64,000 bases of DNA. Source: an uncultured Candidatus Saccharibacteria bacterium. Lineage in GTDB: Bacteria; Patescibacteriota; Doudnabacteria; UBA920. Position numbers and translations under genes: made by a program. Each line of letters opens with the position of its first letter. Within the stretch, counting starts at the first letter, position 1. Location: NCBI GenBank assembly GCA_964402965.1, contig CAYODY010000001.1, forward strand, positions 72,002-136,001, written 5' to 3'. This document shows positions 16,304-25,944 of the stretch, piece after piece. The notes under the pieces are model-generated. The model did no database searches and was not told the DNA's origin. It was given only the letters and a program-made list of their open reading frames with translations.

Positions 16304-19282
16304 TTATAGCAGATCCGGATGGCTACAATTGTGTCTTTTGCTTTTTTTGTGAAGTTCTGCGAATTTGTCGTACTTCACTGCATCCCTAATTTCTTCAATA
16401 GTTTTGAGAATTTTTTCTTTAAGCAAAGTTAGTTCATCTGGCGCAGCTTTTGGTACTGTGACTGTTTCATTTGGATAAACATACCAATACTGCAAATTCT
16501 CTACTTCCATATTTAAATATTCCTCACAGGCCCATTGGTAAATACGCAACTGATCCACCCCTTCACTATCAGTTTTAGTTGGAACTTTTTCAGAAGTTTT
16601 ATAATCAATAATTTGCAGGCTTGTAGTTTCTGTACCATCCTCTTGTGTAATAACAATACCAGAATCTGCTCTGTCAATCTTACCGTTAAAGGTGTACTGG
16701 TTTTTATCGCCTAGTTTTAGTGAGAAAGCTTTTTCGATTAATACAGGACTAACTGGTTTGCCCGATTTTTTCTTTTCCAGAGTTGTAGAATAGAAAGTTT
16801 TAAGAATTTGTAGACCTCGTTGTCTGTATGTTTCTTTTTGTTCTGGGCTTTCATACCAGTCGTCAATCCATTCCTTTTCGAATAATTCAAAAAGTAATTC
16901 TTCTGGAGGAAGTTCTACTTCAGTTTCTTTGGTAAACAAATCTTGCTGAGGCATGGAAAAACTGTGTTGGTAAGCTTCCATGTATTTCTGTAAGACATTG
17001 TGAATTGTTGAACCAAAACTTAAGTGATGATTTCCTGGTAATGGAAGCTTTAGATAGTAGCGGTACTTGTATTCAAGTGGGCATTGTACAAACTGAGAAA
17101 TTTGACTGAAAGAAAAATTTTCTGGTAGCTGTTTGTAAATAACTTTTTTAGACTTTGATTTGTTCGGAGTAAAGACTACTTTCCCTGTAGCTTTGTGTAC
17201 TGTATCGCTTGGGATTAAGTTAGTTTCGTTCAAAAATATTGATGGTTTTTTGTATTTTGCACCACCGTAATCTGTTGCCCAACTTAGATACAAATGAGTC
17301 TTGGCGCGAGTTACTGCAACGTAAAATAGACGGCGCTCCTCTTGTAAATGGAAATCTCCTTCCGGGAGAATGTCTTTTACTAATGCTTCTGGTAGTTCAA
17401 TTGCATCGCGCTTTGCACGAGTTGGGAATCGTTGGTCAACCATATTAATCAGAAAAGCGAATTTGAACTCCAATCCTTTTGAGCTGTGAATTGTCATGAC
17501 CTTTAAACTTTCAGGTCCTGAGTTTGGATCAAACTTAATAGTTCCATCTTCCCCTGCTTTGAACTCTAAGTTAAGTTCATTCAGAAAACCTCGCATAGTT
17601 CGGTCTTCTGCAGTTTGTACATATGCTTCAATTTTCTTATAGAACTGCTCAAGCAGTTCCCTATTTTGAACATTCTCAAGTGTTTCAACAGCGAGTATAG
17701 CATCTATAGAAAGATCTTCTACCAATTCAACAAAAAGTTCTACTGCAGATTTTTCTGTAGAGAGCTGGGTGTGTTTTGTTAAAAGTTCTAATAGAGTTCT
17801 AATTTTTAGTTTTGAATCCTCTGAAAGAACTGAAAGGGCTTCTTCGCTGTGCAGTGCTTCATATAGCGATATCGTTTTTCTGTTTGTAAACTGAGTTAAG
17901 TGCGCTACATCTAGTGCGTCTAATTGGAACTTTGGGAAATTCAAAACTCTGTAAAGCGCGCTGGATTCATGAAAATTTTTGAGTAATTTTAAATAATTTA
18001 TAATGTCGGAAATTAAAGGTTTCTTGTACAAACCTTTGTTGGCTACAAAACTATATGGAACTTGTTTGGCCTCAAGTATAGGTATAATTTCAGTTGCGGC
18101 GGAATTGGATCTAGTTAAAATACAAAAATCATTCCACGAAGTTTCTGGGAATCTCTCTTTTAATTCTATTGCCTTTGTAACTACTAGGTTTAATTCTTCA
18201 CTTAAGTCTTTTCCTTCAAGAACTTGAATTTCTGTTTCGGATTTTTCGTGTCCTTTTAGGCGCTTGTCTATTTTCAGTTTTGTTTCTAAACGATTCGGGT
18301 TATTTCCCTGAATGAAATTGTATGCTAAATCCAAAATTTTCTGAGTACTACGGTAGTTGTCTATTAAAGTTAAGCTTTGAATTGTTGGGTAATCTTCTTT
18401 TATTTTCAAAATATTAGATACTGATGCACCTCTAAACTTGTAAATAGATTGATCGTCATCGCCTACAACCACTAAGTTTTGTTCTGTGCCTGCTAACAAA
18501 CGGATGAGTTCGTATTGGGCGACGTTGGTATCTTGAAATTCATCTACCATTAAAAACCTAAATTGCTTTTGGTAGTATTTGAGTAAATTTGGACGTTTCT
18601 TGAAAAGTTGAATTGTGTAGTGAATTAGATCTCCGAAATCTAAGTACCCGTTGTCTAGCAGTAGTTGCTGATATGTTTTGTATGCATTGGCAAGTTCTTC
18701 AAGACGTTTTTGCTCTACAACCAAATCTTCATCTGGACCAATAGGAAGTTGATTCGCACCGTTTTCTGCTTTGAGTTTTTCAGCGTAAGCAATGTATTCG
18801 TCCGGAGTTATGAGTTCGTCTTTGCACTTAGAAAAATGATCCAAAAGTGCGTCTATGAATTTGTTTGGACTACCAAGTGGTTTGTAGTAGTCTAGTTTGA
18901 ATTCGTTGAAGTTTTTGTAAATAAAAATCCACTGACGAGTTGAGTCCAGAAGTTCGAAGTCGTTAGATAAGCCAATGTCTATACCATGCTGTTTAATAAT
19001 TCTTTCGCAAAAACTATGGAAAGTTGAAATCCAAAAATCATGGACTCCTAATGGTACAAGCATGTCTACTCTTTCTTCCATTTCGCTTGCAGCTTTGTCT
19101 GTAAAAGTAAGAGCTAGAATTTGGTCTGGTTTAGCCAGTTTCTGGTCTATTAGGTAAGCAATTCGACGAGTAATTACGGTAGTCTTCCCTGTTCCAGCAC
19201 CAGCAACAATTAAAAGAGGCCCATTTGTGTGGGTCACAGCTTTTAATTGTTCAGTGTTTAAATTTTCTAAAAGATTTGGCAT
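16304..19282 (-). CDS. UvrD/PcrA-family SF1 helicase fused to a C-terminal PD-(D/E)xK (RecB/AddA/Cas4-like) nuclease domain
   Basis: N-terminal helicase motif I (AGAGTGKTTVITRRIAYLI), DEFQDTN and later SF1 motifs. The C-terminal ~250 aa carry the IIDYKTSEK PD-(D/E)xK signature. 992 aa. The start ATG directly abuts the TAG stop of the PIN gene. Confidence 0.8.
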   Translation of the reverse strand: MPNLLENLNTEQLKAVTHTNGPLLIVAGAGTGKTTVITRRIAYLIDQKLAKPDQILALTFTDKAASEMEERVDMLVPLGVHDFWISTFHSFCERIIKQHGIDIGLSNDFELLDSTRQWIFIYKNFNEFKLDYYKPLGSPNKFIDALLDHFSKCKDELITPDEYIAYAEKLKAENGANQLPIGPDEDLVVEQKRLEELANAYKTYQQLLLDNGYLDFGDLIHYTIQLFKKRPNLLKYYQKQFRFLMVDEFQDTNVAQYELIRLLAGTEQNLVVVGDDDQSIYKFRGASVSNILKIKEDYPTIQSLTLIDNYRSTQKILDLAYNFIQGNNPNRLETKLKIDKRLKGHEKSETEIQVLEGKDLSEELNLVVTKAIELKERFPETSWNDFCILTRSNSAATEIIPILEAKQVPYSFVANKGLYKKPLISDIINYLKLLKNFHESSALYRVLNFPKFQLDALDVAHLTQFTNRKTISLYEALHSEEALSVLSEDSKLKIRTLLELLTKHTQLSTEKSAVELFVELVEDLSIDAILAVETLENVQNRELLEQFYKKIEAYVQTAEDRTMRGFLNELNLEFKAGEDGTIKFDPNSGPESLKVMTIHSSKGLEFKFAFLINMVDQRFPTRAKRDAIELPEALVKDILPEGDFHLQEERRLFYVAVTRAKTHLYLSWATDYGGAKYKKPSIFLNETNLIPSDTVHKATGKVVFTPNKSKSKKVIYKQLPENFSFSQISQFVQCPLEYKYRYYLKLPLPGNHHLSFGSTIHNVLQKYMEAYQHSFSMPQQDLFTKETEVELPPEELLFELFEKEWIDDWYESPEQKETYRQRGLQILKTFYSTTLEKKKSGKPVSPVLIEKAFSLKLGDKNQYTFNGKIDRADSGIVITQEDGTETTSLQIIDYKTSEKVPTKTDSEGVDQLRIYQWACEEYLNMEVENLQYWYVYPNETVTVPKAAPDELTLLKEKILKTIEEIRDAVKYDKFAELHKKSKRHNCSHPDLL

Positions 19283-19729
19283 CTATTCCTTTCCTGAGAA
19301 GAAACCTGCCCATTGTTTCCAAAGATCATTACCTTCATCTTTGTAACGAACCCAAAATTGAGACGGGTTCACAATTTGGACATTTTCGTATTTCTCGATA
19401 GAAAGTAAATCGTTGTCGCGCGTTACTAAATAGTCAGCACCTGCTTCAACCGCACTCTCTAAAATTTTATTGTCTTCTGGGTCGCGCACAATATTAATTT
19501 GACGTCGATTCACAACATGGTTTATTTGCGAAAGTAAATCATTGATTTCGTTTTCGTATTCTGGGTTTTCTACTAAACGACGCATAATTAACTTATTCTC
19601 TTGAATAGTTTGATGGTTTGCGTACGCTTCAATTTCCCCTGTCCTCACAGCGTCTATAATTTGTTTTTCGTAAGAGTAGTCGTCTTTAATTCCGTCTATT
19701 ATTACATTTGTATCTAAAACTATTTTCAT
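19283..19729 (-). CDS. PIN-domain protein (putative ribonuclease)
   Basis: KIVLDTNVII, DPEDNKIL and LVTRDNDL give the four-acidic-residue PIN pattern. 148 aa. No antitoxin-like partner. The stop abuts the helicase-nuclease start (TAGATG). Confidence 0.7.
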   Translation of the reverse strand: MKIVLDTNVIIDGIKDDYSYEKQIIDAVRTGEIEAYANHQTIQENKLIMRRLVENPEYENEINDLLSQINHVVNRRQINIVRDPEDNKILESAVEAGADYLVTRDNDLLSIEKYENVQIVNPSQFWVRYKDEGNDLWKQWAGFFSGKE

Positions 19730-19767
19730 TCTAATTTTTTCTATTGAAAGGTGCTCTTAGGTTTTGA

Positions 19768-20346
19768 TTAAGATCTGGCGTTTTTCCGTGCGGCGCGGGC
19801 TTGTGGTGTTCGACTGCTTGGGCGGGCGCCTGTACGACCACCTTTAATGGCCATCAGGAAACGACGAGGATCTTCATCTAAGTCTATGAAGTTATCTGTG
19901 AGCTCTTTAATCTTACTCGAAGTAGATTTTCCAAACGCAACGGTTTCAGTAAGTTGGCCTGTCATTTGTAGGTATTCTAGTAGAGGCGCGAAGTCGCCAT
20001 CGCCACTTGCTAAGACAACTACGTCGAGCTTGTTCATTTGCTTAATGATATCCATAGCAATGCCGACATCCCAATCGCCTTTTTGAGTTCCACCAGCAAA
20101 TGTTTGTAAATCTTTTGCTTTAACTTCGAAACCTGCTTTTTCAAGTGCGTCAAAAAAAGTTTGTTCTTCTGGCATATCTGCTTTTACAACATATGCAATG
20201 GCGCGGATTAAACGACGATTACCAAGAGCTTCGTGCAATACTTCGTTGAAGTTTACTCGAGAATTGTAAATGTTTCGCGCTGAGTAATATAGGTTTTGAA
20301 CATCAACAAATATTCCTACTCGCTGATCCGGGTTTCTTATAGACAT
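19768..20346 (-). CDS. NYN/LabA-like domain protein (PIN-like RNase fold) with an Arg-rich C-terminal tail
   Basis: GIFVDVQNLYYS and VVLASGDGDFAPLLEYLQ are the NYN (PF01936) hallmarks. The C-terminus is TGARPSSRTPQARAARKNARS. 192 aa. Confidence 0.7.
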   Translation of the reverse strand: MSIRNPDQRVGIFVDVQNLYYSARNIYNSRVNFNEVLHEALGNRRLIRAIAYVVKADMPEEQTFFDALEKAGFEVKAKDLQTFAGGTQKGDWDVGIAMDIIKQMNKLDVVVLASGDGDFAPLLEYLQMTGQLTETVAFGKSTSSKIKELTDNFIDLDEDPRRFLMAIKGGRTGARPSSRTPQARAARKNARS

Positions 20347-20373
20347 AAAAAATAGTTAAAAAATTAGATAAGG

Positions 20374-21429
20374 TTATTCAATTAAATTTTTAGATTCTTC
20401 CGCAGCAAATTCAGTAACCTCTACTTGCTCCATTTGTAAGGTAGCAGCATTTTTAATGTTACTTTGTAGTTTAGTAAAATCGTTAGCAACAGTACCCATT
20501 GTATTGGCAGAATTCTTAATATGATTAGCAAGAATTCCTAAGTTTCGGCCGAATTTATCGGATTCTTGTTGGATTCCAGAAACCATATGCAAAAGCTTTT
20601 CAGCAACTTCGTTAACTTGCTGACCACGTAAGGCTATTAAAATAATTTGTAAATGATGGTATAAAGTGTTTGGGCTCACCATGTAGACTTTTTTGTTGCG
20701 GGCGTATTCAACTGTTGCCATGTCTTCTAAAGCTTCATGGAAAACTCCCTCGCTTGGAATGTACATTAGTGCAAAATCAAAAGTTCCTTCTTGAGTAAGG
20801 ATGTATTTTTTGTGAATTTCATCAATTCGCTTGCGAATATCACGTAAAAAAGCTTTTTTCAAATTTTCTGCAGAATCTTCCTCTTTCGCTTCTTTGTACA
20901 AACGAAAATTTTCCATGGAGAATTTGCTATCTATAGAAAGAATTTTGTCTCCTACGAAAACAGCCATGTCTACAATTTCACCGTTGCTAAATTTATACTG
21001 GGCTTTGTATGAATTTTTATTTAGCACTTGGGAAAGCATGTTCTCTAGCATTTCTTCACCAAAGTTTCCGCGTGCTTTTGGCGAGGCCAGAACTTCGGAC
21101 AAACGACGAATGTCTGGACCAATTTGCGACATTTCTCCAAGTCTTCCTTGTAGCGCACCAATTACTTTTGCGGCATTATCAAGGCGCTCGTTGATGTCTT
21201 TATTAGTCGCAGAAATAGACTTTTCCATAGCATCTTTTGTGGCTTCTGTACCGGTTTTGATATCGCGCATCCATTCCATCATTACTTTCATATTAGTGTC
21301 GTCAACTGGTTTCTCGGCCGACTTTTTGAGCGTCGAAAGCATATACAAAAGAACGCCGAATCCGGCCACAAGTAAAGCTATGATGATATATAAAAATGTT
21401 GTCATATGGTTAATTATAGCAGAGGGCAC
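20374..21429 (-). CDS. rmuC: DNA recombination protein RmuC
   Basis: N-terminal TM, a long coiled coil, and a C-terminal RmuC domain (GNFGEEMLENMLSQVL, SIDSKFSMENF). 351 aa. Confidence 0.7.
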   Translation of the reverse strand: MPSAIINHMTTFLYIIIALLVAGFGVLLYMLSTLKKSAEKPVDDTNMKVMMEWMRDIKTGTEATKDAMEKSISATNKDINERLDNAAKVIGALQGRLGEMSQIGPDIRRLSEVLASPKARGNFGEEMLENMLSQVLNKNSYKAQYKFSNGEIVDMAVFVGDKILSIDSKFSMENFRLYKEAKEEDSAENLKKAFLRDIRKRIDEIHKKYILTQEGTFDFALMYIPSEGVFHEALEDMATVEYARNKKVYMVSPNTLYHHLQIILIALRGQQVNEVAEKLLHMVSGIQQESDKFGRNLGILANHIKNSANTMGTVANDFTKLQSNIKNAATLQMEQVEVTEFAAEESKNLIE

Positions 21430-21592: not shown

Positions 21593-22612
21593 TTATTTTC
21601 CCAATTTTTTTAATGTGCCAAGAGTCAATAAACTAGCAGGATATATTGTGCTAATTTTTTGCATGTATTCTTTGGAATTATAGATTTCATCACTAACAAA
21701 TGTTATAACGCCGTAATTGGCAATTGATTTTGCCTTTTCTTCGGTTAAATCTAAACCAAGTGTTATTTGAATCATAACGTCAATTTTACTCATCTGAACA
21801 GTTTTTATAAATTGTTTATACCTCTCTCTTAGAGTTCTTTTGGCACCAATTCCGTATACTTTATTCTTTATTTTAAAGAAAAAGTCAAATTCTGTTGAAC
21901 TGTCTGCTTTGTCATGAGTTTTTGATATGTCATTTGCTTTTATCCCCAAACTAATAAGGATATTATATATTCTGTCTTCATAATTTGAACCTGCATCGGA
22001 TAGAATCGATTGATTGATACTTTCTGAAAACATTAACATAAACATCTGATTTGGTTCCAATCCTTTAGTTTTTAGGAATCTATAATCATGAAATAGAGAA
22101 TTAACATATTCTTTAGTTGATTGAGAAATGAAACTTGTATCTTTATCTTCAAGCTTTGAAAAAAACAATAGAGAGAGTAAAGCGCCATTAACTCTAGTGT
22201 AATATGGTTTGCTTTTTGAAATCGTGTCGTATTCGACTGAAAGTTGATTTACATTTTGAAGTGAGGATAAGTTAGATATATCTCCAACTTTGGCTTCAGC
22301 GAGCAGTAAAGGTTTAATTTGAATTAATTTAAGTGAGAAAACAAAAGTGATTAAATCAGTAGTATTTTTAACTTGATACATCATGGCAGTAAGCCCTACT
22401 TTTTTAGTTTCTGAAAGCTGGTCTATTAAATTAATAAATATTGCTTTAATTTGATTGAGTGATAGTTTGGAGTTAGAAAAGTATGCTTCCAAGAATTTAT
22501 TGATTTCATTATCCGATAATTTAATAGCACCATTAAGCTCCTTTAAGAAAAAATATAGATTAAAGTTAGCATCAAGCTTATTCCTTTTAATTTTGACCTT
22601 ATTTATTTTCAT
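21593..22612 (-). CDS. candidate type II restriction endonuclease (unassigned family) cognate to the adjacent m5C methyltransferase
   Basis: 339-aa ORF with no recognisable housekeeping motif. Its start overlaps the methyltransferase stop by 14 nt (translational coupling). The call rests on genomic context only. Confidence 0.4.
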   Translation of the reverse strand: MKINKVKIKRNKLDANFNLYFFLKELNGAIKLSDNEINKFLEAYFSNSKLSLNQIKAIFINLIDQLSETKKVGLTAMMYQVKNTTDLITFVFSLKLIQIKPLLLAEAKVGDISNLSSLQNVNQLSVEYDTISKSKPYYTRVNGALLSLLFFSKLEDKDTSFISQSTKEYVNSLFHDYRFLKTKGLEPNQMFMLMFSESINQSILSDAGSNYEDRIYNILISLGIKANDISKTHDKADSSTEFDFFFKIKNKVYGIGAKRTLRERYKQFIKTVQMSKIDVMIQITLGLDLTEEKAKSIANYGVITFVSDEIYNSKEYMQKISTIYPASLLTLGTLKKLGK

Positions 22613-23603
22613 GTTTTTGCAAGGTATTAATAATCTGTTTTGCTAATGTTTTGATTACAGGCACTGCAACGCTGTTACCGAATTGTTTATACATTTGATT
22701 ATCGCTATTTGGCAAAACAAAAGAATCTGGAAACCCTTGGAGTCTTGCAGCCTCTCTAGGTGTTAATTTACGAGGGTTTTTATTTTTTTGTTCAATTAAA
22801 ATTTCAGATCCGTCTTTGTAATATCTTGCTGATATTGTACTGGTATACTTGGATTTTCTGTTAAACAAAGAATAGCCAAAACCATTACCTTTTTCTCTAT
22901 GTTCTTTTTTTCTTCTTTGGTGTCCTGCCCATAATTTATCAGAAATTGTATACTTAGGATCAATTTTCTTTTCAAGAATATCTCCTAATTTTGTTGCAGG
23001 TTTTGGTTCATCTGGAAAAGTAAATTCTATATTCCCTTTAAAAGCAACAATGTAAATTCTAACTCGATTTTGAGGCAAACCAAAATCTTTAGCATTATAT
23101 AATCTATGATAAACTTTATAACCCATATCCTCTAGGGTAGAAATAATCACTTTTAAGGTATTCCCTTTGTCGTGGCTTGCTAAATTCCTAACATTTTCTA
23201 AAAATACAACCTTTGGTTTATGGTGTTTAACTATTCTCGCTATATCAAAAAATAAGGTTCCGCGAGTATCTTCAAAGCCTTTTTTTAGACCTGCTTGAGA
23301 AAATGGCTGACATGGAAAGCCTGCTAATAACATATCGAAATTTGGAATTTCTTCTGGAGATATTTTTGTGATATCTCCGTATGGCAATTCGCCGAAGTTT
23401 GCAAGGTATGTCTTTTTCGCTGCCTCGTCCCACTCTGAAGTAAATACGCATTCACCGCCAGCATTTTCAAAACCCATGCGTATCCCTCCGATTCCTGCAA
23501 ACAAATCGATAAAAGTAAATTTAGCAGATTTAATTTTGTTAATAGGTTTAGTAAATAAGTCCCTAATTATAACTTTGCGTTTTAGAACGGTAGTATTTTG
23601 CAT
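22599..23603 (-). CDS. DNA (cytosine-5)-methyltransferase, M.HhaI-like family
   Basis: All C5-MTase motifs are present: I FIDLFAGIGGIRMGF, IV GFPCQPFSQAG, VI VVFLENVRNL, VIII QNRVRIYIVAF, X YKQFGNSVAVPV. The conserved blocks closely parallel M.HhaI; the target-recognition domain differs. 334 aa. Confidence 0.9.
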   Translation of the reverse strand: MQNTTVLKRKVIIRDLFTKPINKIKSAKFTFIDLFAGIGGIRMGFENAGGECVFTSEWDEAAKKTYLANFGELPYGDITKISPEEIPNFDMLLAGFPCQPFSQAGLKKGFEDTRGTLFFDIARIVKHHKPKVVFLENVRNLASHDKGNTLKVIISTLEDMGYKVYHRLYNAKDFGLPQNRVRIYIVAFKGNIEFTFPDEPKPATKLGDILEKKIDPKYTISDKLWAGHQRRKKEHREKGNGFGYSLFNRKSKYTSTISARYYKDGSEILIEQKNKNPRKLTPREAARLQGFPDSFVLPNSDNQMYKQFGNSVAVPVIKTLAKQIINTLQKHENK

Positions 23604-23642: not shown

Positions 23643-23672
23643 AAAACAACCCTCTCTAGAAGGATTGTTTTT
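23643..23672. terminator. bidirectional terminator-like hairpin flanking the R-M module (right side, next to tRNA-Asp)
   Basis: AAAAACAAcCCT-ctctaga-AGGaTTGTTTTT, a 9-bp stem with one mismatch. It shares the ctctagaagg core with the hairpin at 21470-21498. Confidence 0.55.
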
Positions 23673-23681
23673 ATATATACG

Positions 23682-23758
23682 TGGCGGACTGAACGGGACT
23701 CGAACCCGCGACCTCTCGCGTGACAGGCGAGCGCTCTAACCAACTGAGCTACCAGTCC
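23682..23758 (-). tRNA. tRNA-Asp (GUC), CCA encoded
   Basis: The reverse complement folds as a cloverleaf: GGACTGG acceptor, anticodon loop CTGTCAC (GTC), T-loop TTCGAGT, 3' end GCCA. Confidence 0.85.
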
Positions 23759-23828
23759 ATGTTATTTATTGGCGCGAATGCGCTAAAATTTTCTTACACT
23801 TTTATATTTATTTCTATATTGATCGGGT

Positions 23829-23904
23829 TGGTACCGACGACAGGGATTGAACCTGTGACCTAAGGCTTATGAGTCCTTCGCTCTACCAACTGAGCTACGT
23901 CGGC
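23829..23904 (-). tRNA. tRNA-Met (CAU) elongator (tRNA-Ile2 with lysidine not excluded), CCA encoded
   Basis: The reverse complement GCCGACGTAGCTCAGTTGGTAGAGCGAAGGACTCATAAGCCTTAGGTCACAGGTTCAATCCCTGTCGTCGGTACCA folds as a cloverleaf, apart from an A31:G39 mismatch at the base of the anticodon stem. The anticodon is CAT. The C11:G24 pair indicates an elongator type. Confidence 0.8.
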
Positions 23905-24042
23905 TTATTACCCTACTGCGCTACAATTAGACTTGCAATAATTACTCTTGCGCTGTTGCGAATTTTATTGATGCGGCTTATGCTTCTGCATAATTTTTTT
24001 GGTTGCGGGGCCGGGATTCGAACCCGGAACCTCAAGGTTATG

Positions 24043-24694
24043 CATACCACTATAGCTTTCGCTACTCTATCGAAATCGATTCGAAATAGATTTGATGGTC
24101 TGGACTTTCTCTTCATCCATCTATATAATGGATGCCTACCATTAAGTCTCTACACCTTCCTGAAAATCTTCAGGCTTGGCTCGGGATTGCCATCTAACAG
24201 GGTTCCCCGAATTTGATAGGATTCACATCTAAATTACTTTAGATGCAGCCCATAGTGAGATAAGTTCAAAGTTTTCTCGGTAATCAGCTGACTTTGGTTT
24301 ACGTTGACGTTTGTCAGTTTCAACTAAGGTAAGCGTGCTACCAAAACTTATAAATATTTCTACTGGAAAAACGTAAAAAATTCGTTTTTCAGGGATGTAT
24401 ACAATAGCGAAGTCAAAATCTTGTTTATTGTACAAACTTCTTATCATAAATCTGCGATTAGTCTTAGTGCGTCTAACATCAACACAATAGTTTTGATCAG
24501 AAGTGTTAAACCAAGCAGATTTTACTTGAAGTTTTACAAGCTTTCCATTTATATCAACTATTAGATCGTAGGAATGTCTGTCGCCCACAGGCTTCGAAAC
24601 TCCCCATCCAAACTCTAATAGTTTTAGAATAGTGGCTTGTTCAGCTACATCGCCTTTTAGTTTAGTATCCATATAAAGAACTTTCTCGAGATTG
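24043..24694 (-). mobile_element. group I self-splicing intron (~652 nt) carrying a homing-endonuclease-like ORF
   Basis: Reading the minus strand downstream of the ORF shows the group I core elements. P is AAATTCGGGGAACC, Q is GCAATCCCGAGCCAAGCC, R is GTGTAGAGACTTAATGG and S is AGAAAGTCCAGACC. A P6 hairpin (CCTGAAGATTTTCAGG) and a P8 hairpin (CATCCATtatatagATGGATG) are present. The 5' exon ends in U and the intron ends in G, consistent with CU|...G|CAUAA splicing. Confidence 0.75.
24229..24672 (-). CDS. intron-encoded PD-(D/E)xK-fold endonuclease (putative homing endonuclease, cf. I-Ssp6803I of the cyanobacterial tRNA-fMet intron)
   Basis: 147 aa. GDVAEQATILKLLEFGWGV...DRHSYDLIVDINGKLVKLQVKS fits a helix-E / D / (Q)xK restriction-fold core. 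It lies entirely inside the intron, 22 nt after the 5' splice site. Confidence 0.6.
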   Translation of the reverse strand: MDTKLKGDVAEQATILKLLEFGWGVSKPVGDRHSYDLIVDINGKLVKLQVKSAWFNTSDQNYCVDVRRTKTNRRFMIRSLYNKQDFDFAIVYIPEKRIFYVFPVEIFISFGSTLTLVETDKRQRKPKSADYRENFELISLWAASKVI

Positions 24695-24879
24695 AGCCTT
24701 GCGAGCTGCCAATTGCTCTACCCCGCGTCAATATATATACCAAAAGGTACTTGGAGATTATATCACTATTACTAGGATTTGGCAAGGTTTTAGGTAAAAT
24801 TTATCATAAATTTAGTCAAGTAAAACAAAACCGCCCCTTGCGGAACGGTTTCGTCGATTGCTTCGAAGCAATTATCGAA

Positions 24880-25056
24880 TTAACGACGACGCTTCTTAGC
24901 AGCTGGCTTACGCTTTGCAGCTGGCTTACGCTTTGCTACTTTACGCTTAGCTGGCTTTTTAGCGGCAGCTTTTTTAGCTGGACGCTTTGCTACTTTACGC
25001 TTTGCAGCTTTTTTAGCTGGTGCGCGCTTTGCAGCTTTTCGCTTTTTTACGGCCAT
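24880..25056 (-). CDS. small Lys/Ala-rich basic protein (histone H1-like / HU-unrelated nucleoid-associated candidate), 58 aa
   Basis: Minus-strand ORF translates as MAVKKRKAAKRAPAKKAAKRKVAKRPAKKAAAKKPAKRKVAKRKPAAKRKPAAKKRRR. It is missing from the ORF track, probably because it is under 60 aa. GGAGA SD 10 nt upstream; TAA stop at 24880-24882. Confidence 0.6.
   Translation of the reverse strand: MAVKKRKAAKRAPAKKAAKRKVAKRPAKKAAAKKPAKRKVAKRKPAAKRKPAAKKRRR
24890..25050. repeat. tandem/imperfect direct repeats underlying the Lys/Ala-rich ORF
   Basis: Perfect 18-bp tandem duplication agctggcttacgctttgc at 24901-24918 and 24919-24936. The 20-mer cgctttgctactttacgctt occurs at 24929-24948 and 24983-25002. 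ttttttagctgg occurs at 24970-24981 and 25009-25020. Confidence 0.8.
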
Positions 25057-25269: not shown

Positions 25270-25944
25270 TCAATAGATACTGTGCATAACTTTTTGTAAT
25301 TTATTTATTAAAATTTTATTGTGCAAAGATTTAATTTCTTTTTCTAAACGTAATTTAGAAATATTTTTAGTAGTTGTAAAATATTTTTTTAAAACACTTT
25401 CTGTTTTAGAATCAAATTCAAATTGTAATTTTATTTGAAATCTATATGCTCGAATAATTCGTAATGGGTCTTCTAAAAGTTTTTTAGTTCCATTGCCGAT
25501 TAAACGAATTACCTGGTTTTTTAGATCTTCCAGTCCCCCGTGAAAGTCCAGAATTTCACCTGTGCAAGGGTTGTAATATATAGCGTTTATTGTGAAATCC
25601 CTTCTATTACTGTCTGTTTTTGGACTAGTTATGAATCTTACTTCAGGGAATCTGTTATTGCTGTATCGCTCAGTTCTGAATGTAGATATCTCTACCTTTG
25701 AGTTCCCTTTGTGAGCTACAATAACACCGAATTTTTCATGCGAAGTAGAAAATTTAACTTTATTAAATTTCAGAATTTTTTTAACTTGCTCTGGAGTAGC
25801 GCTTGTTGCAATATCCACGTCTGTAAATTTTCGTTGTAATAAAAAATCACGAACTGCACCGCCAACAAAATATGTTTTCGGATATTCGTGAAAAATTATT
25901 TTTTGAACAAGTAAAGAAAATTTTGGAAACTTTACACTATTCAT
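25270..25944 (-). CDS. minimal tRNA nucleotidyltransferase (CCA/CC/A-adding enzyme family, Pol-beta-like head and neck only)
   Basis: GGAVRDFLLQRKFTDVDIAT (head domain with the two Asp), RRDFTINAIYYN and EDPLRIIRAYRF motifs. Only 224 aa. Confidence 0.75.
   Translation of the reverse strand: MNSVKFPKFSLLVQKIIFHEYPKTYFVGGAVRDFLLQRKFTDVDIATSATPEQVKKILKFNKVKFSTSHEKFGVIVAHKGNSKVEISTFRTERYSNNRFPEVRFITSPKTDSNRRDFTINAIYYNPCTGEILDFHGGLEDLKNQVIRLIGNGTKKLLEDPLRIIRAYRFQIKLQFEFDSKTESVLKKYFTTTKNISKLRLEKEIKSLHNKILINKLQKVMHSIY

Follow-up and report, generated by a model that had tools for sequence, protein, structure and literature searches.

A 64,000-nucleotide (nt) stretch of contig CAYODY010000001.1 (the window, by which we mean the whole stretch analysed) carries on its minus strand an initiator tRNA (tRNA-fMet) gene split by a 652-nt group I intron, which in turn contains an open reading frame (ORF) for a homing endonuclease of the I-Ssp6803I family (Table 1). 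We consider it very probable that this is a functional, self-splicing intron accompanied by its endonuclease gene. A preliminary description of the same DNA had proposed two tRNA halves, at 24727-24695 and 24042-24000, and these do join into an initiator tRNA-Met(CAU): for the exons spliced in silico, ARAGORN returned a single 76-nt tRNA-Met(cat) with the C1xA72 mismatch, the A11:U24 pair and an encoded CCA. In the predicted ligated product, CAAGGCU is followed directly by CAUAACCUUG. The unspliced DNA, when introns were allowed, gave the same tRNA with a 652-nt intron after nt 33 (i(34,652)). A default ARAGORN run, on the other hand, detected no initiator tRNA in the window, and since it shows just four other tRNAs, namely tRNA-Met (elongator type), tRNA-Asp, tRNA-Thr and tRNA-Gly, the split gene is the sole initiator tRNA within the 64 kb. 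The anticodon stem has two of the three classical initiator G:C pairs, the 29:41 pair being A:U. The A29:U41 stem also occurs on at least 120 metagenomic contigs (L087-L206) from varied environments and is therefore a common natural variant. Upstream, about 30 nt from the tRNA 5' end, a candidate promoter matches 11 of 12 consensus positions and has the TG of an extended -10 element. The gene order fMet-Met-Asp is also present at related Patescibacteria loci.

That the insert is a group I intron, as first proposed, is borne out by a match to RF00028 at 24267..24080 on the minus strand (70.4 bits, E = 7.8e-16), which exceeds the gathering score of 50 and covers the full model (1-253). We scanned one genome per GTDB species for relatives. 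At least 440 genomes encode a relative of the endonuclease, and the best 80 loci were examined. The intron boundaries, anchored with ARAGORN, are common to 76 of these 80 loci: GGCU precedes an intron that starts with CAA, and the final G is followed by CAUAACC. The insertion point between nt 33 and 34 agrees with PMC13011429. The U and terminal G noted earlier at the splice sites correspond to U24695, which precedes the 5' splice site, and G24043, the final intron base. Likewise, the strings previously labelled P, Q, R and S are located in J3/4-P4, P4'-P6, J6/7-P7-P3' and J8/7-P7' of a covariation-supported structure. This structure was obtained by drawing helices P2, P3, P4, P5, P6, P6a, P7, P8, P9.0, P9a and P9b from the window sequence and scoring them on an alignment (A2) that extends from the guide sequence to the 3' splice site and comprises the window and 63 related loci, 64 sequences in all. 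The window ribozyme aligns end to end with those of cyanobacterial loci L075, L072, L073 and L082.

Across the 64 sequences, 93.4% of the cells in core helices are paired, compared with 32-42% when the partner column is slid. Compensatory changes on both sides occur in 41 of the 60 core pairs, and no shuffle attained the observed values. Covariation is found at every pair of P2, P3 (6/6 pairs, 98.7% paired), P6a (6/6) and P9b (5/5), at six of the seven pairs of P8 (24134-24128 with 24120-24114) and at three of the five pairs of P9.0; P9a is a hairpin of variable length and aligns poorly. P4 and P5 are 99.3% paired, with P4 invariant. P7 is also invariant and thus uninformative for covariation, being neither supported nor contradicted by it. 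A minimum-free-energy fold of the window sequence taken singly recovers the same helices, including P9.0, P9a and P9b (z = -3.1). RNAalifold suggested other pairings, namely guide GGGCU with the 3' strand of P7 and the exon halves as an anticodon stem. We regard these as artefacts of a program that does not handle pseudoknots; P1 and P7 are supported instead.

The preliminary description saw no convincing P1 guide by eye. There is one nonetheless: 5'-UAUGGGCU-3' (24254-24247) lies inside the final codons of the ORF, at its 3' end and some 440 nt beyond the 5' splice site. Its UGGGCU portion (24252-24247) pairs with exon GGCU and intron CA to form P1, so that U24695 stands opposite G24250 as the splice-site U.G wobble. 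The four central pairs of P1 are present in all 77 sequences compared (the window and 76 loci) and all six pairs in 48 of them. The guide also contains UAUG, complementary to the first four bases of the 3' exon (CAUA), as expected for P10. Beyond P1 proper, a second pair of strands forms an extension. Its 5' strand ends 6 nt before the start codon of the ORF and spans the purine run resembling a Shine-Dalgarno sequence. Over the 77 loci, the mean duplex energy of the extension is -11.8 kcal/mol with its own partner and -5.1 kcal/mol (standard deviation 3.3) with permuted partners. The two strands vary freely between loci yet stay complementary, with many compensatory changes. As this complementarity reaches across the ORF, the endonuclease gene must lie in the terminal loop of an extended P1.

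The location of the guide has a consequence for the protein. The hexamer xGGGCx occupies codons 141-142 in all 66 ORFs that lie in introns and in none of the 18 free-standing or phage ORFs, which serve as a natural control. Consequently, it is the RNA rather than the protein that imposes the Trp141-Ala142 motif: the motif is kept only in intron-borne genes because the two codons are the intron's guide sequence. Moreover, since the stop codon falls within the 3' strand of P2, the final ~12 codons double as the 3' strand of the P1 extension, the guide and most of P2. Trp-Ala codons doubling as a guide thus provide a clean case of RNA structure constraining protein sequence.

The ORF itself had been read as a PD-(D/E)xK endonuclease, and database searches place it firmly in the I-Ssp6803I family. 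It matches PF11645 with E = 7.9e-47 (159.2 bits against a cut-off of 26.1; 137 of 138 profile positions covered) and the I-Ssp6803I chain of PDB 2OST with E = 1.3e-53 (60% identity over 136 amino acids (aa), gap-free). A search of NCBIfam with the ORF gave no matches. The window protein has E11, D36, Q49 and K51, which do not vary among 77 natural homologues; together they form the E ... D ... Q-x-K arrangement that we take to be the catalytic residues of this variant of the PD-(D/E)XK fold. It is worth pointing out that the 2OST chain has Gln where all 77 natural homologues have Glu11. The crystallised I-Ssp6803I is probably an engineered catalytic mutant at this position, which matters when active-site annotations are transferred. 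Within the Patescibacteria clade the ratio of non-synonymous to synonymous substitution rates (dN/dS) is 0.04-0.11, and synonymous sites are saturated.

Table 1. Features of the split tRNA-fMet gene and its surroundings (positions in the window)
Feature	Position	Strand	Basis
Group I intron, 652 nt, between tRNA nt 33 and 34	24043..24694	-	RF00028, ARAGORN, boundaries at related loci
Terminal guanosine (omega-G)	24043	-	Sequence; invariant at all related loci
tRNA-fMet 5' exon, nt 1-33 (acceptor 5' strand, D arm, anticodon stem 5' strand, C32, U33)	24695..24727	-	ARAGORN and sequence
tRNA-fMet 3' exon, nt 34-76 (CAU anticodon, anticodon stem 3' strand, variable loop, T arm, acceptor 3' strand, CCA)	24000..24042	-	ARAGORN
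P1 5' strand, exon GGCU + intron CA	24693..24698	-	Pairing in 77 sequences
P1-extension 5' strand GAGAAAGUU	24679..24687	-	Duplex-energy test, compensatory changes
Homing endonuclease ORF, 147 aa, I-Ssp6803I family, in terminal loop of extended P1	24229..24672	-	ORF list, PF11645, 2OST
P1-extension 3' strand AACUU-A-UCUC, A24261 bulged, codons 136-139	24257..24266	-	Duplex-energy test
Internal guide sequence 5'-UAUGGGCU-3'	24247..24254	-	Pairing across loci; codons Trp141-Ala142
P2 hairpin, 9 base pairs, GUAA loop; ORF stop UAG in 3' strand	24225..24246	-	9/9 pairs changed on both sides, 97% of cells paired
P3 (24220-24215 with 24140-24135), enclosing P4, P5, P6, P6a and P7 5' strand	24135..24220	-	Covariation
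P7 pseudoknot helix (G24150 + GACU 24148-24145 with AGUCC 24106-24102), enclosing P3' and P8	24102..24150	-	
P9.0 (24099-24095 with 24050-24046), enclosing P9a and GAAA-tetraloop hairpin P9b (24065-24052)	24046..24099	-	
Candidate sigma-70-like promoter TTGCCA-17 nt-(TG)TATAAT	24757..24785	-	Consensus match only
Probable co-transcribed genes 3' of tRNA-fMet	23650..23904	-	tRNA scans, Rfam, sequence signals
tRNA-Met (CAU, not initiator type)	23829-23904	-	tRNA scan
tRNA-Asp	23682-23758	-	tRNA scan
Terminator-like hairpin after tRNA-Asp	23650-23663	-	Sequence

The host had been described as a streamlined, low-GC bacterium. This fits the 37% GC content of the window and the relatives of its SecA protein, which identify the host as a Patescibacterium; the closest named ones are Patescibacteria including Candidatus Doudnabacteria (66-78% identity). 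An identical endonuclease in the same gene context is found on 13 independently assembled contigs, several of them from activated sludge. They share the order ATP synthase beta and epsilon subunits, a short PolyA_pol-domain protein, a 58-aa lysine-rich protein, the intron and a C5 methylase. Given that the prototype of the family is cyanobacterial and that metagenome assemblies can be chimeric, one might suspect that an intron-bearing tRNA of cyanobacterial (or other) origin was misjoined, in assembly or binning, to a Patescibacteria contig. We give this explanation practically no credence. The recurrence of the same endonuclease and flanking genes on 13 independent contigs from several samples excludes a chimera, the exons have the clade-specific stem CAAGG/CCUUG rather than the cyanobacterial UCGGG/CCCGA, the GC content of the intron and its GC content at third codon positions (GC3) fit the host, and all nearest relatives of the endonuclease are from Patescibacteria.

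The best 80 loci come from Patescibacteria, Bacteroidota, Nitrospirota, Chloroflexota, Acidobacteriota, several proteobacterial classes, Methylomirabilota, Armatimonadota, Eremiobacterota, Omnitrophota, Actinomycetota, Desulfobacterota and Cyanobacteria. A split tRNA-fMet with identical 33/34 junctions was called by ARAGORN in 76 of them. Of the four exceptions, three run into a contig end short of the 3' exon, though an intron core is still visible in two of them; in the fourth, L032, neither a split tRNA nor an intron core was seen. The ORF begins 15-38 nt after the 5' splice site in 65 loci, as it does in the window.

This range is considerably wider than the literature suggests. Reviews describe PD-(D/E)XK homing endonucleases as cyanobacterial (PMC3384342, PMC3943268), and a 2026 survey covering 4,934 complete genomes reported two Cyanobacteriota as the sole carriers of PF11645 genes within tRNA-fMet introns and no IC-type introns within Patescibacteria's tRNA genes (PMC13011429). 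The window element therefore falls outside the described set, and together with the scan of 440 genomes it widens the range of the element to Patescibacteria and over a dozen other phyla. The same survey labels the Bacteroidota introns at position 33/34 of tRNA-fMet as IC3 (PMC13011429, Table S5). Core strings of these introns match those of the window almost exactly, and the window intron is a probable member of the IC3-type tRNA-fMet lineage.

Not all relatives are arranged in this way. Eleven of the 80 loci (L038, L050, L059, L065, L069, L072, L073, L076, L079, L082 and L086), mostly from Nostocales-type cyanobacteria together with two Bacteroidota and one Anaerolineales, have a short ORF-less tRNA-fMet intron (244-299 nt) at 33/34 and a free-standing endonuclease gene. 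A terminator-like hairpin separates the gene from the tRNA, which lies about 50-90 nt upstream; at L073, for example, the tRNA occupies 1099-1419 and the endonuclease ORF 1501-1983. Free-standing endonucleases encoded beside their targets are reportedly also known from the seg and mob genes of phage T4 and from cyanophage psbA, for which Shub and colleagues are said to have put forward the 'collaborative homing' model. The layout at the 11 loci resembles such collaborative homing, or else a stage at which a mobile intron is being put together or taken apart. The T4 and psbA systems are free-standing like the endonuclease relatives at these 11 intron loci and on six viral contigs, whereas the window gene sits inside its intron.

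Eight viral contigs (IMG/VR; L207-L213 among those cited here) encode endonuclease relatives with 44-56% identity. In L207-L213 the endonuclease ORF starts at 1501 and a tRNA-Met lies at about 1921-2015. The 3' end of the ORF overlaps an uninterrupted initiator-like tRNA-Met(CAU) by 10-41 nt on five contigs, and on a sixth the tRNA is 27 nt downstream. Some of these tRNA-Met genes are part of phage tRNA arrays, and their anticodon stems are unusual; they may represent resistant targets. Genomes of cultured phages yielded only distant relatives (29-35% identity), and no isolated phage vector was identified among them. One further locus deserves mention. L041, labelled as a Patescibacteria group, has UUGGG-type exons and an endonuclease near-identical to its counterparts in Methylomirabilota and Nitrospirota genomes (L035, L042, L049); either there was a recent transfer between phyla or the contig was mis-binned.

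In a neighbour-joining tree, the window endonuclease falls in a clade made up exclusively of Patescibacteria (the window and L007-L016), while the rest of the tree partly follows phyla and partly mixes them. The GC3 of the ORF is 0.25, against 0.20-0.30 for neighbouring host genes, and in other phyla the GC content of the endonuclease also tracks the host. Identity of the endonuclease to its counterparts in L009 and L011 is 79% and 75%, compared with 77% and 68% for SecA on what are apparently the same contigs. The Patescibacteria-only clade, purifying selection with saturated synonymous sites, host-like GC3 and divergence parallel to that of SecA thus indicate an old resident rather than a recent import, and a recent import from cyanobacteria, which we also considered, is at odds with the clade, the GC3 and the SecA comparison. 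Accordingly, the lateral intron transfer proposed earlier holds for the family, which is patchily distributed over many phyla and has a phylum-mixing tree, but not for the window copy in any recent sense.

The intron-less target GCTCGCAAGGCTCATAACCTTGAGGT is found, as an exact match, on at least 120 metagenomic contigs. Two of these contigs, L197 and L091, have the gene order of the window with an uninterrupted tRNA-fMet, and their host proteins are about as distant as those of intron-bearing relatives. Presence and absence of the intron hence interleave among relatives, as would be expected if the intron is still being gained and lost. Together with the intact ORF and its low dN/dS, the frequency of empty sites, in syntenic relatives as well, makes the 'active homing element' of the preliminary description plausible, although homing as such is only inferred. 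On balance, we lean towards an endonuclease that currently drives homing, the main alternative being its retention for another role. In that case the intron would splice and be inherited vertically as a fixture of the clade, while the endonuclease, no longer homing, would be kept in a host-level or intron-level role, perhaps assisting splicing (maturase), eliminating as a guard those alleles that have lost the intron, or taking part in another DNA transaction. Strong purifying selection over saturated synonymous divergence, the Patescibacteria-only clade with its SecA-like divergence, a fully host-like GC3 and the conserved fMet-Met-Asp synteny all count in favour of such a role. We nevertheless find it unlikely, as intron-less alleles occur in equally related syntenic genomes, a pattern expected from ongoing gain and loss, and every residue of the nuclease motif is invariant. 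Furthermore, the same intron also occurs without an ORF, which shows that the ribozyme can manage without the protein in cis, and the I-Ssp6803I family is not known to have maturase activity.

Homing by the window enzyme would have to proceed on a diverged target. Across loci, the exon sequence around the insertion point (GGCU on the 5' side, CAUAACC on the 3' side) is invariant, whereas anticodon-stem positions 27-29 and 41-43 vary. The window clade has the stem CAAGG/CCUUG, compared with UCGGG/CCCGA or UUGGG/CCCAA in most bacteria, including Synechocystis-type cyanobacteria; the corresponding target of the Synechocystis type is GCTCGTCGGGCTCATAACCCGAAGGTC. At otherwise conserved positions, the endonucleases of the window clade show 13 private substitutions, such as N66V, E113T and W135F. 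One hypothesis is that these substitutions adapt the enzyme to the altered stem, clade and target being confounded in this comparison. The diverged stem offers a natural test of specificity co-evolution. By analogy with the prototype, the window enzyme would be expected to cut the target of its own host.

It is tempting to speculate further that the I-Ssp6803I family represents a widespread and old partnership with the initiator-tRNA gene, captured in stages: free-standing by a phage tRNA-Met, free-standing beside ORF-less introns and embedded in the P1 loop. The window clade would then have co-evolved its specificity with the A29:U41 stem, and the enzyme would have persisted over hundreds of millions of years, whether through continual re-homing among relatives that lack the intron or through a domesticated role. 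As a whole this scenario is tentative and rather doubtful. If true, the family would constitute a natural series for the assembly of mobile introns and for endonuclease specificity tracking the tRNA.

Returning to the functional mobile intron that we favour, its operation can be outlined as follows. A sigma-70-type promoter would drive a tRNA-fMet/tRNA-Met/tRNA-Asp transcript. In the covariation-supported fold, GGCU and the first two intron bases pair with guide UGGGCU about 440 nt downstream, the 9-base-pair P1 extension bridging the ORF and bringing 5' splice site and guide together, and P2-P9 form the catalytic core with its P3/P7 pseudoknot. According to group I chemistry, exogenous guanosine would attack after U33 at the U.G wobble, CAUA would then pair with UAUG (P10), and the terminal G would be used in exon ligation to give mature tRNA-fMet. 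The endonuclease could be translated from the precursor or from the excised intron. As the 5' strand of the P1 extension contains the ribosome-binding region, and the last codons form the 3' strand of that helix, the guide and P2, a single molecule can probably not fold and be translated at the same time. As in I-Ssp6803I, the target bound and cut by a tetramer would be the pseudo-palindromic DNA of the anticodon stem-loop in a tRNA-fMet gene without the intron, and repair of the cut allele from an intron-containing copy would spread the intron.

Covariation and homology show, at the level of sequence, the fold, the splice sites and the enzyme family. Several points weigh on the other side. 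Splicing, translation, cleavage and homing are deductions from group I chemistry and from the prototype, which is well studied. In the window, P5 has just two clean pairs, and GAGAAAG is a weak Shine-Dalgarno-like motif. Compared with the characterised Synechocystis site, the target is changed on each side at three of the five base pairs of the anticodon stem. In addition, long vertical persistence under purifying selection is unlike the classic course of selfish endonucleases, which invade and then decay. Finally, our inspection covered 64 kb, and a second, intron-less tRNA-fMet could lie elsewhere in the genome. This last point is also what might favour a dead, intron-disrupted pseudogene, with the initiator tRNA supplied by another locus. 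Such a pseudogene is very improbable in view of the canonical tRNA exons, core helices that are all intact and covary across phyla, an intact ORF under selection, the promoter-like site directly upstream and the same arrangement in at least nine related genomes. Patescibacteria genomes, moreover, usually have single copies of tRNA genes.

The closest characterised counterpart is the tRNA-fMet intron of Synechocystis sp. PCC 6803 (I-Ssp6803I; GenBank U10482; PDB 2OST), which occupies the same 33/34 site of the same host gene. The two are also alike in size: the prototype is a 655-nt intron with a 150-aa ORF (PMC1995217), compared with 652 nt and 147 aa in the window. In Snowella (L075), a close cyanobacterial relative, the P1 loop likewise holds the ORF, 18 nt past the 5' splice site, and the ribozyme is alignable. 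The window differs from Synechocystis in its Patescibacterium host (~37% GC), its target stem, its separate endonuclease clade and the 13 clade-specific substitutions. With IC3 introns of anticodon loops (cyanobacterial and plastid tRNA-Leu(UAA) at 34/35, Azoarcus tRNA-Ile, tRNA-Arg) it shares a compact core, the same consensus strings in J3/4-P4, P6, P7 and J8/7, the P9 GAAA tetraloop and a P1 built from nucleotides of the anticodon loop and stem. However, the tRNA-Leu, tRNA-Ile and tRNA-Arg introns are mostly ORF-less, 200-300 nt long and have a short P1 hairpin, whereas the window intron is inserted at 33/34 and its extended P1 closes a loop of about 410 nt that holds the ORF. The Patescibacteria tRNA introns of Nakagawa et al. 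2026 (PMC13011429) are found in the same host phylum and in the anticodon loop, some with endonuclease genes, but unlike the window intron they belong to subgroup IA, are located at 35/36 of tRNA-Asn or tRNA-Asp (and tRNA-Thr) and carry HNH endonucleases.

The value of the element thus lies in annotation, in a host range beyond the literature and in the dual-coding arrangement; it reveals no new mechanism and leaves the understanding of how such elements work unchanged. As to annotation, standard tRNA finders miss the intron-split gene: given the default ARAGORN result, the genome would appear to be without tRNA-fMet and the endonuclease would be labelled 'hypothetical'.

The surroundings of the split gene are also of some interest. 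The tRNA cluster is followed directly by the gene for a C5 cytosine DNA methylase (22599-23603, minus strand, PF00145), which overlaps by 14 nt a 339-aa ORF (21593-22612, minus strand) that gave no Pfam matches. The two are probably a type II restriction-modification pair, and they are found at the same place on the independent contigs L001 and L002. A run of nucleic-acid-processing genes occupies 16304-21429 on the minus strand and encodes a UvrD-helicase/PD-(D/E)XK_1 fusion (AddA-like, 992 aa), an NYN-domain protein (192 aa) and RmuC (351 aa). Two neighbouring genes lie a short way upstream of the tRNA operon. One encodes a 58-aa histone-H1-like protein composed almost entirely of Lys, Ala, Arg and Pro (24880-25056, minus strand), and the other a 224-aa protein consisting of the PolyA_pol head domain alone (25270-25944, minus strand), presumably about half the length expected of a CCA-adding enzyme. 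The tRNA-fMet of the operon encodes its own CCA.

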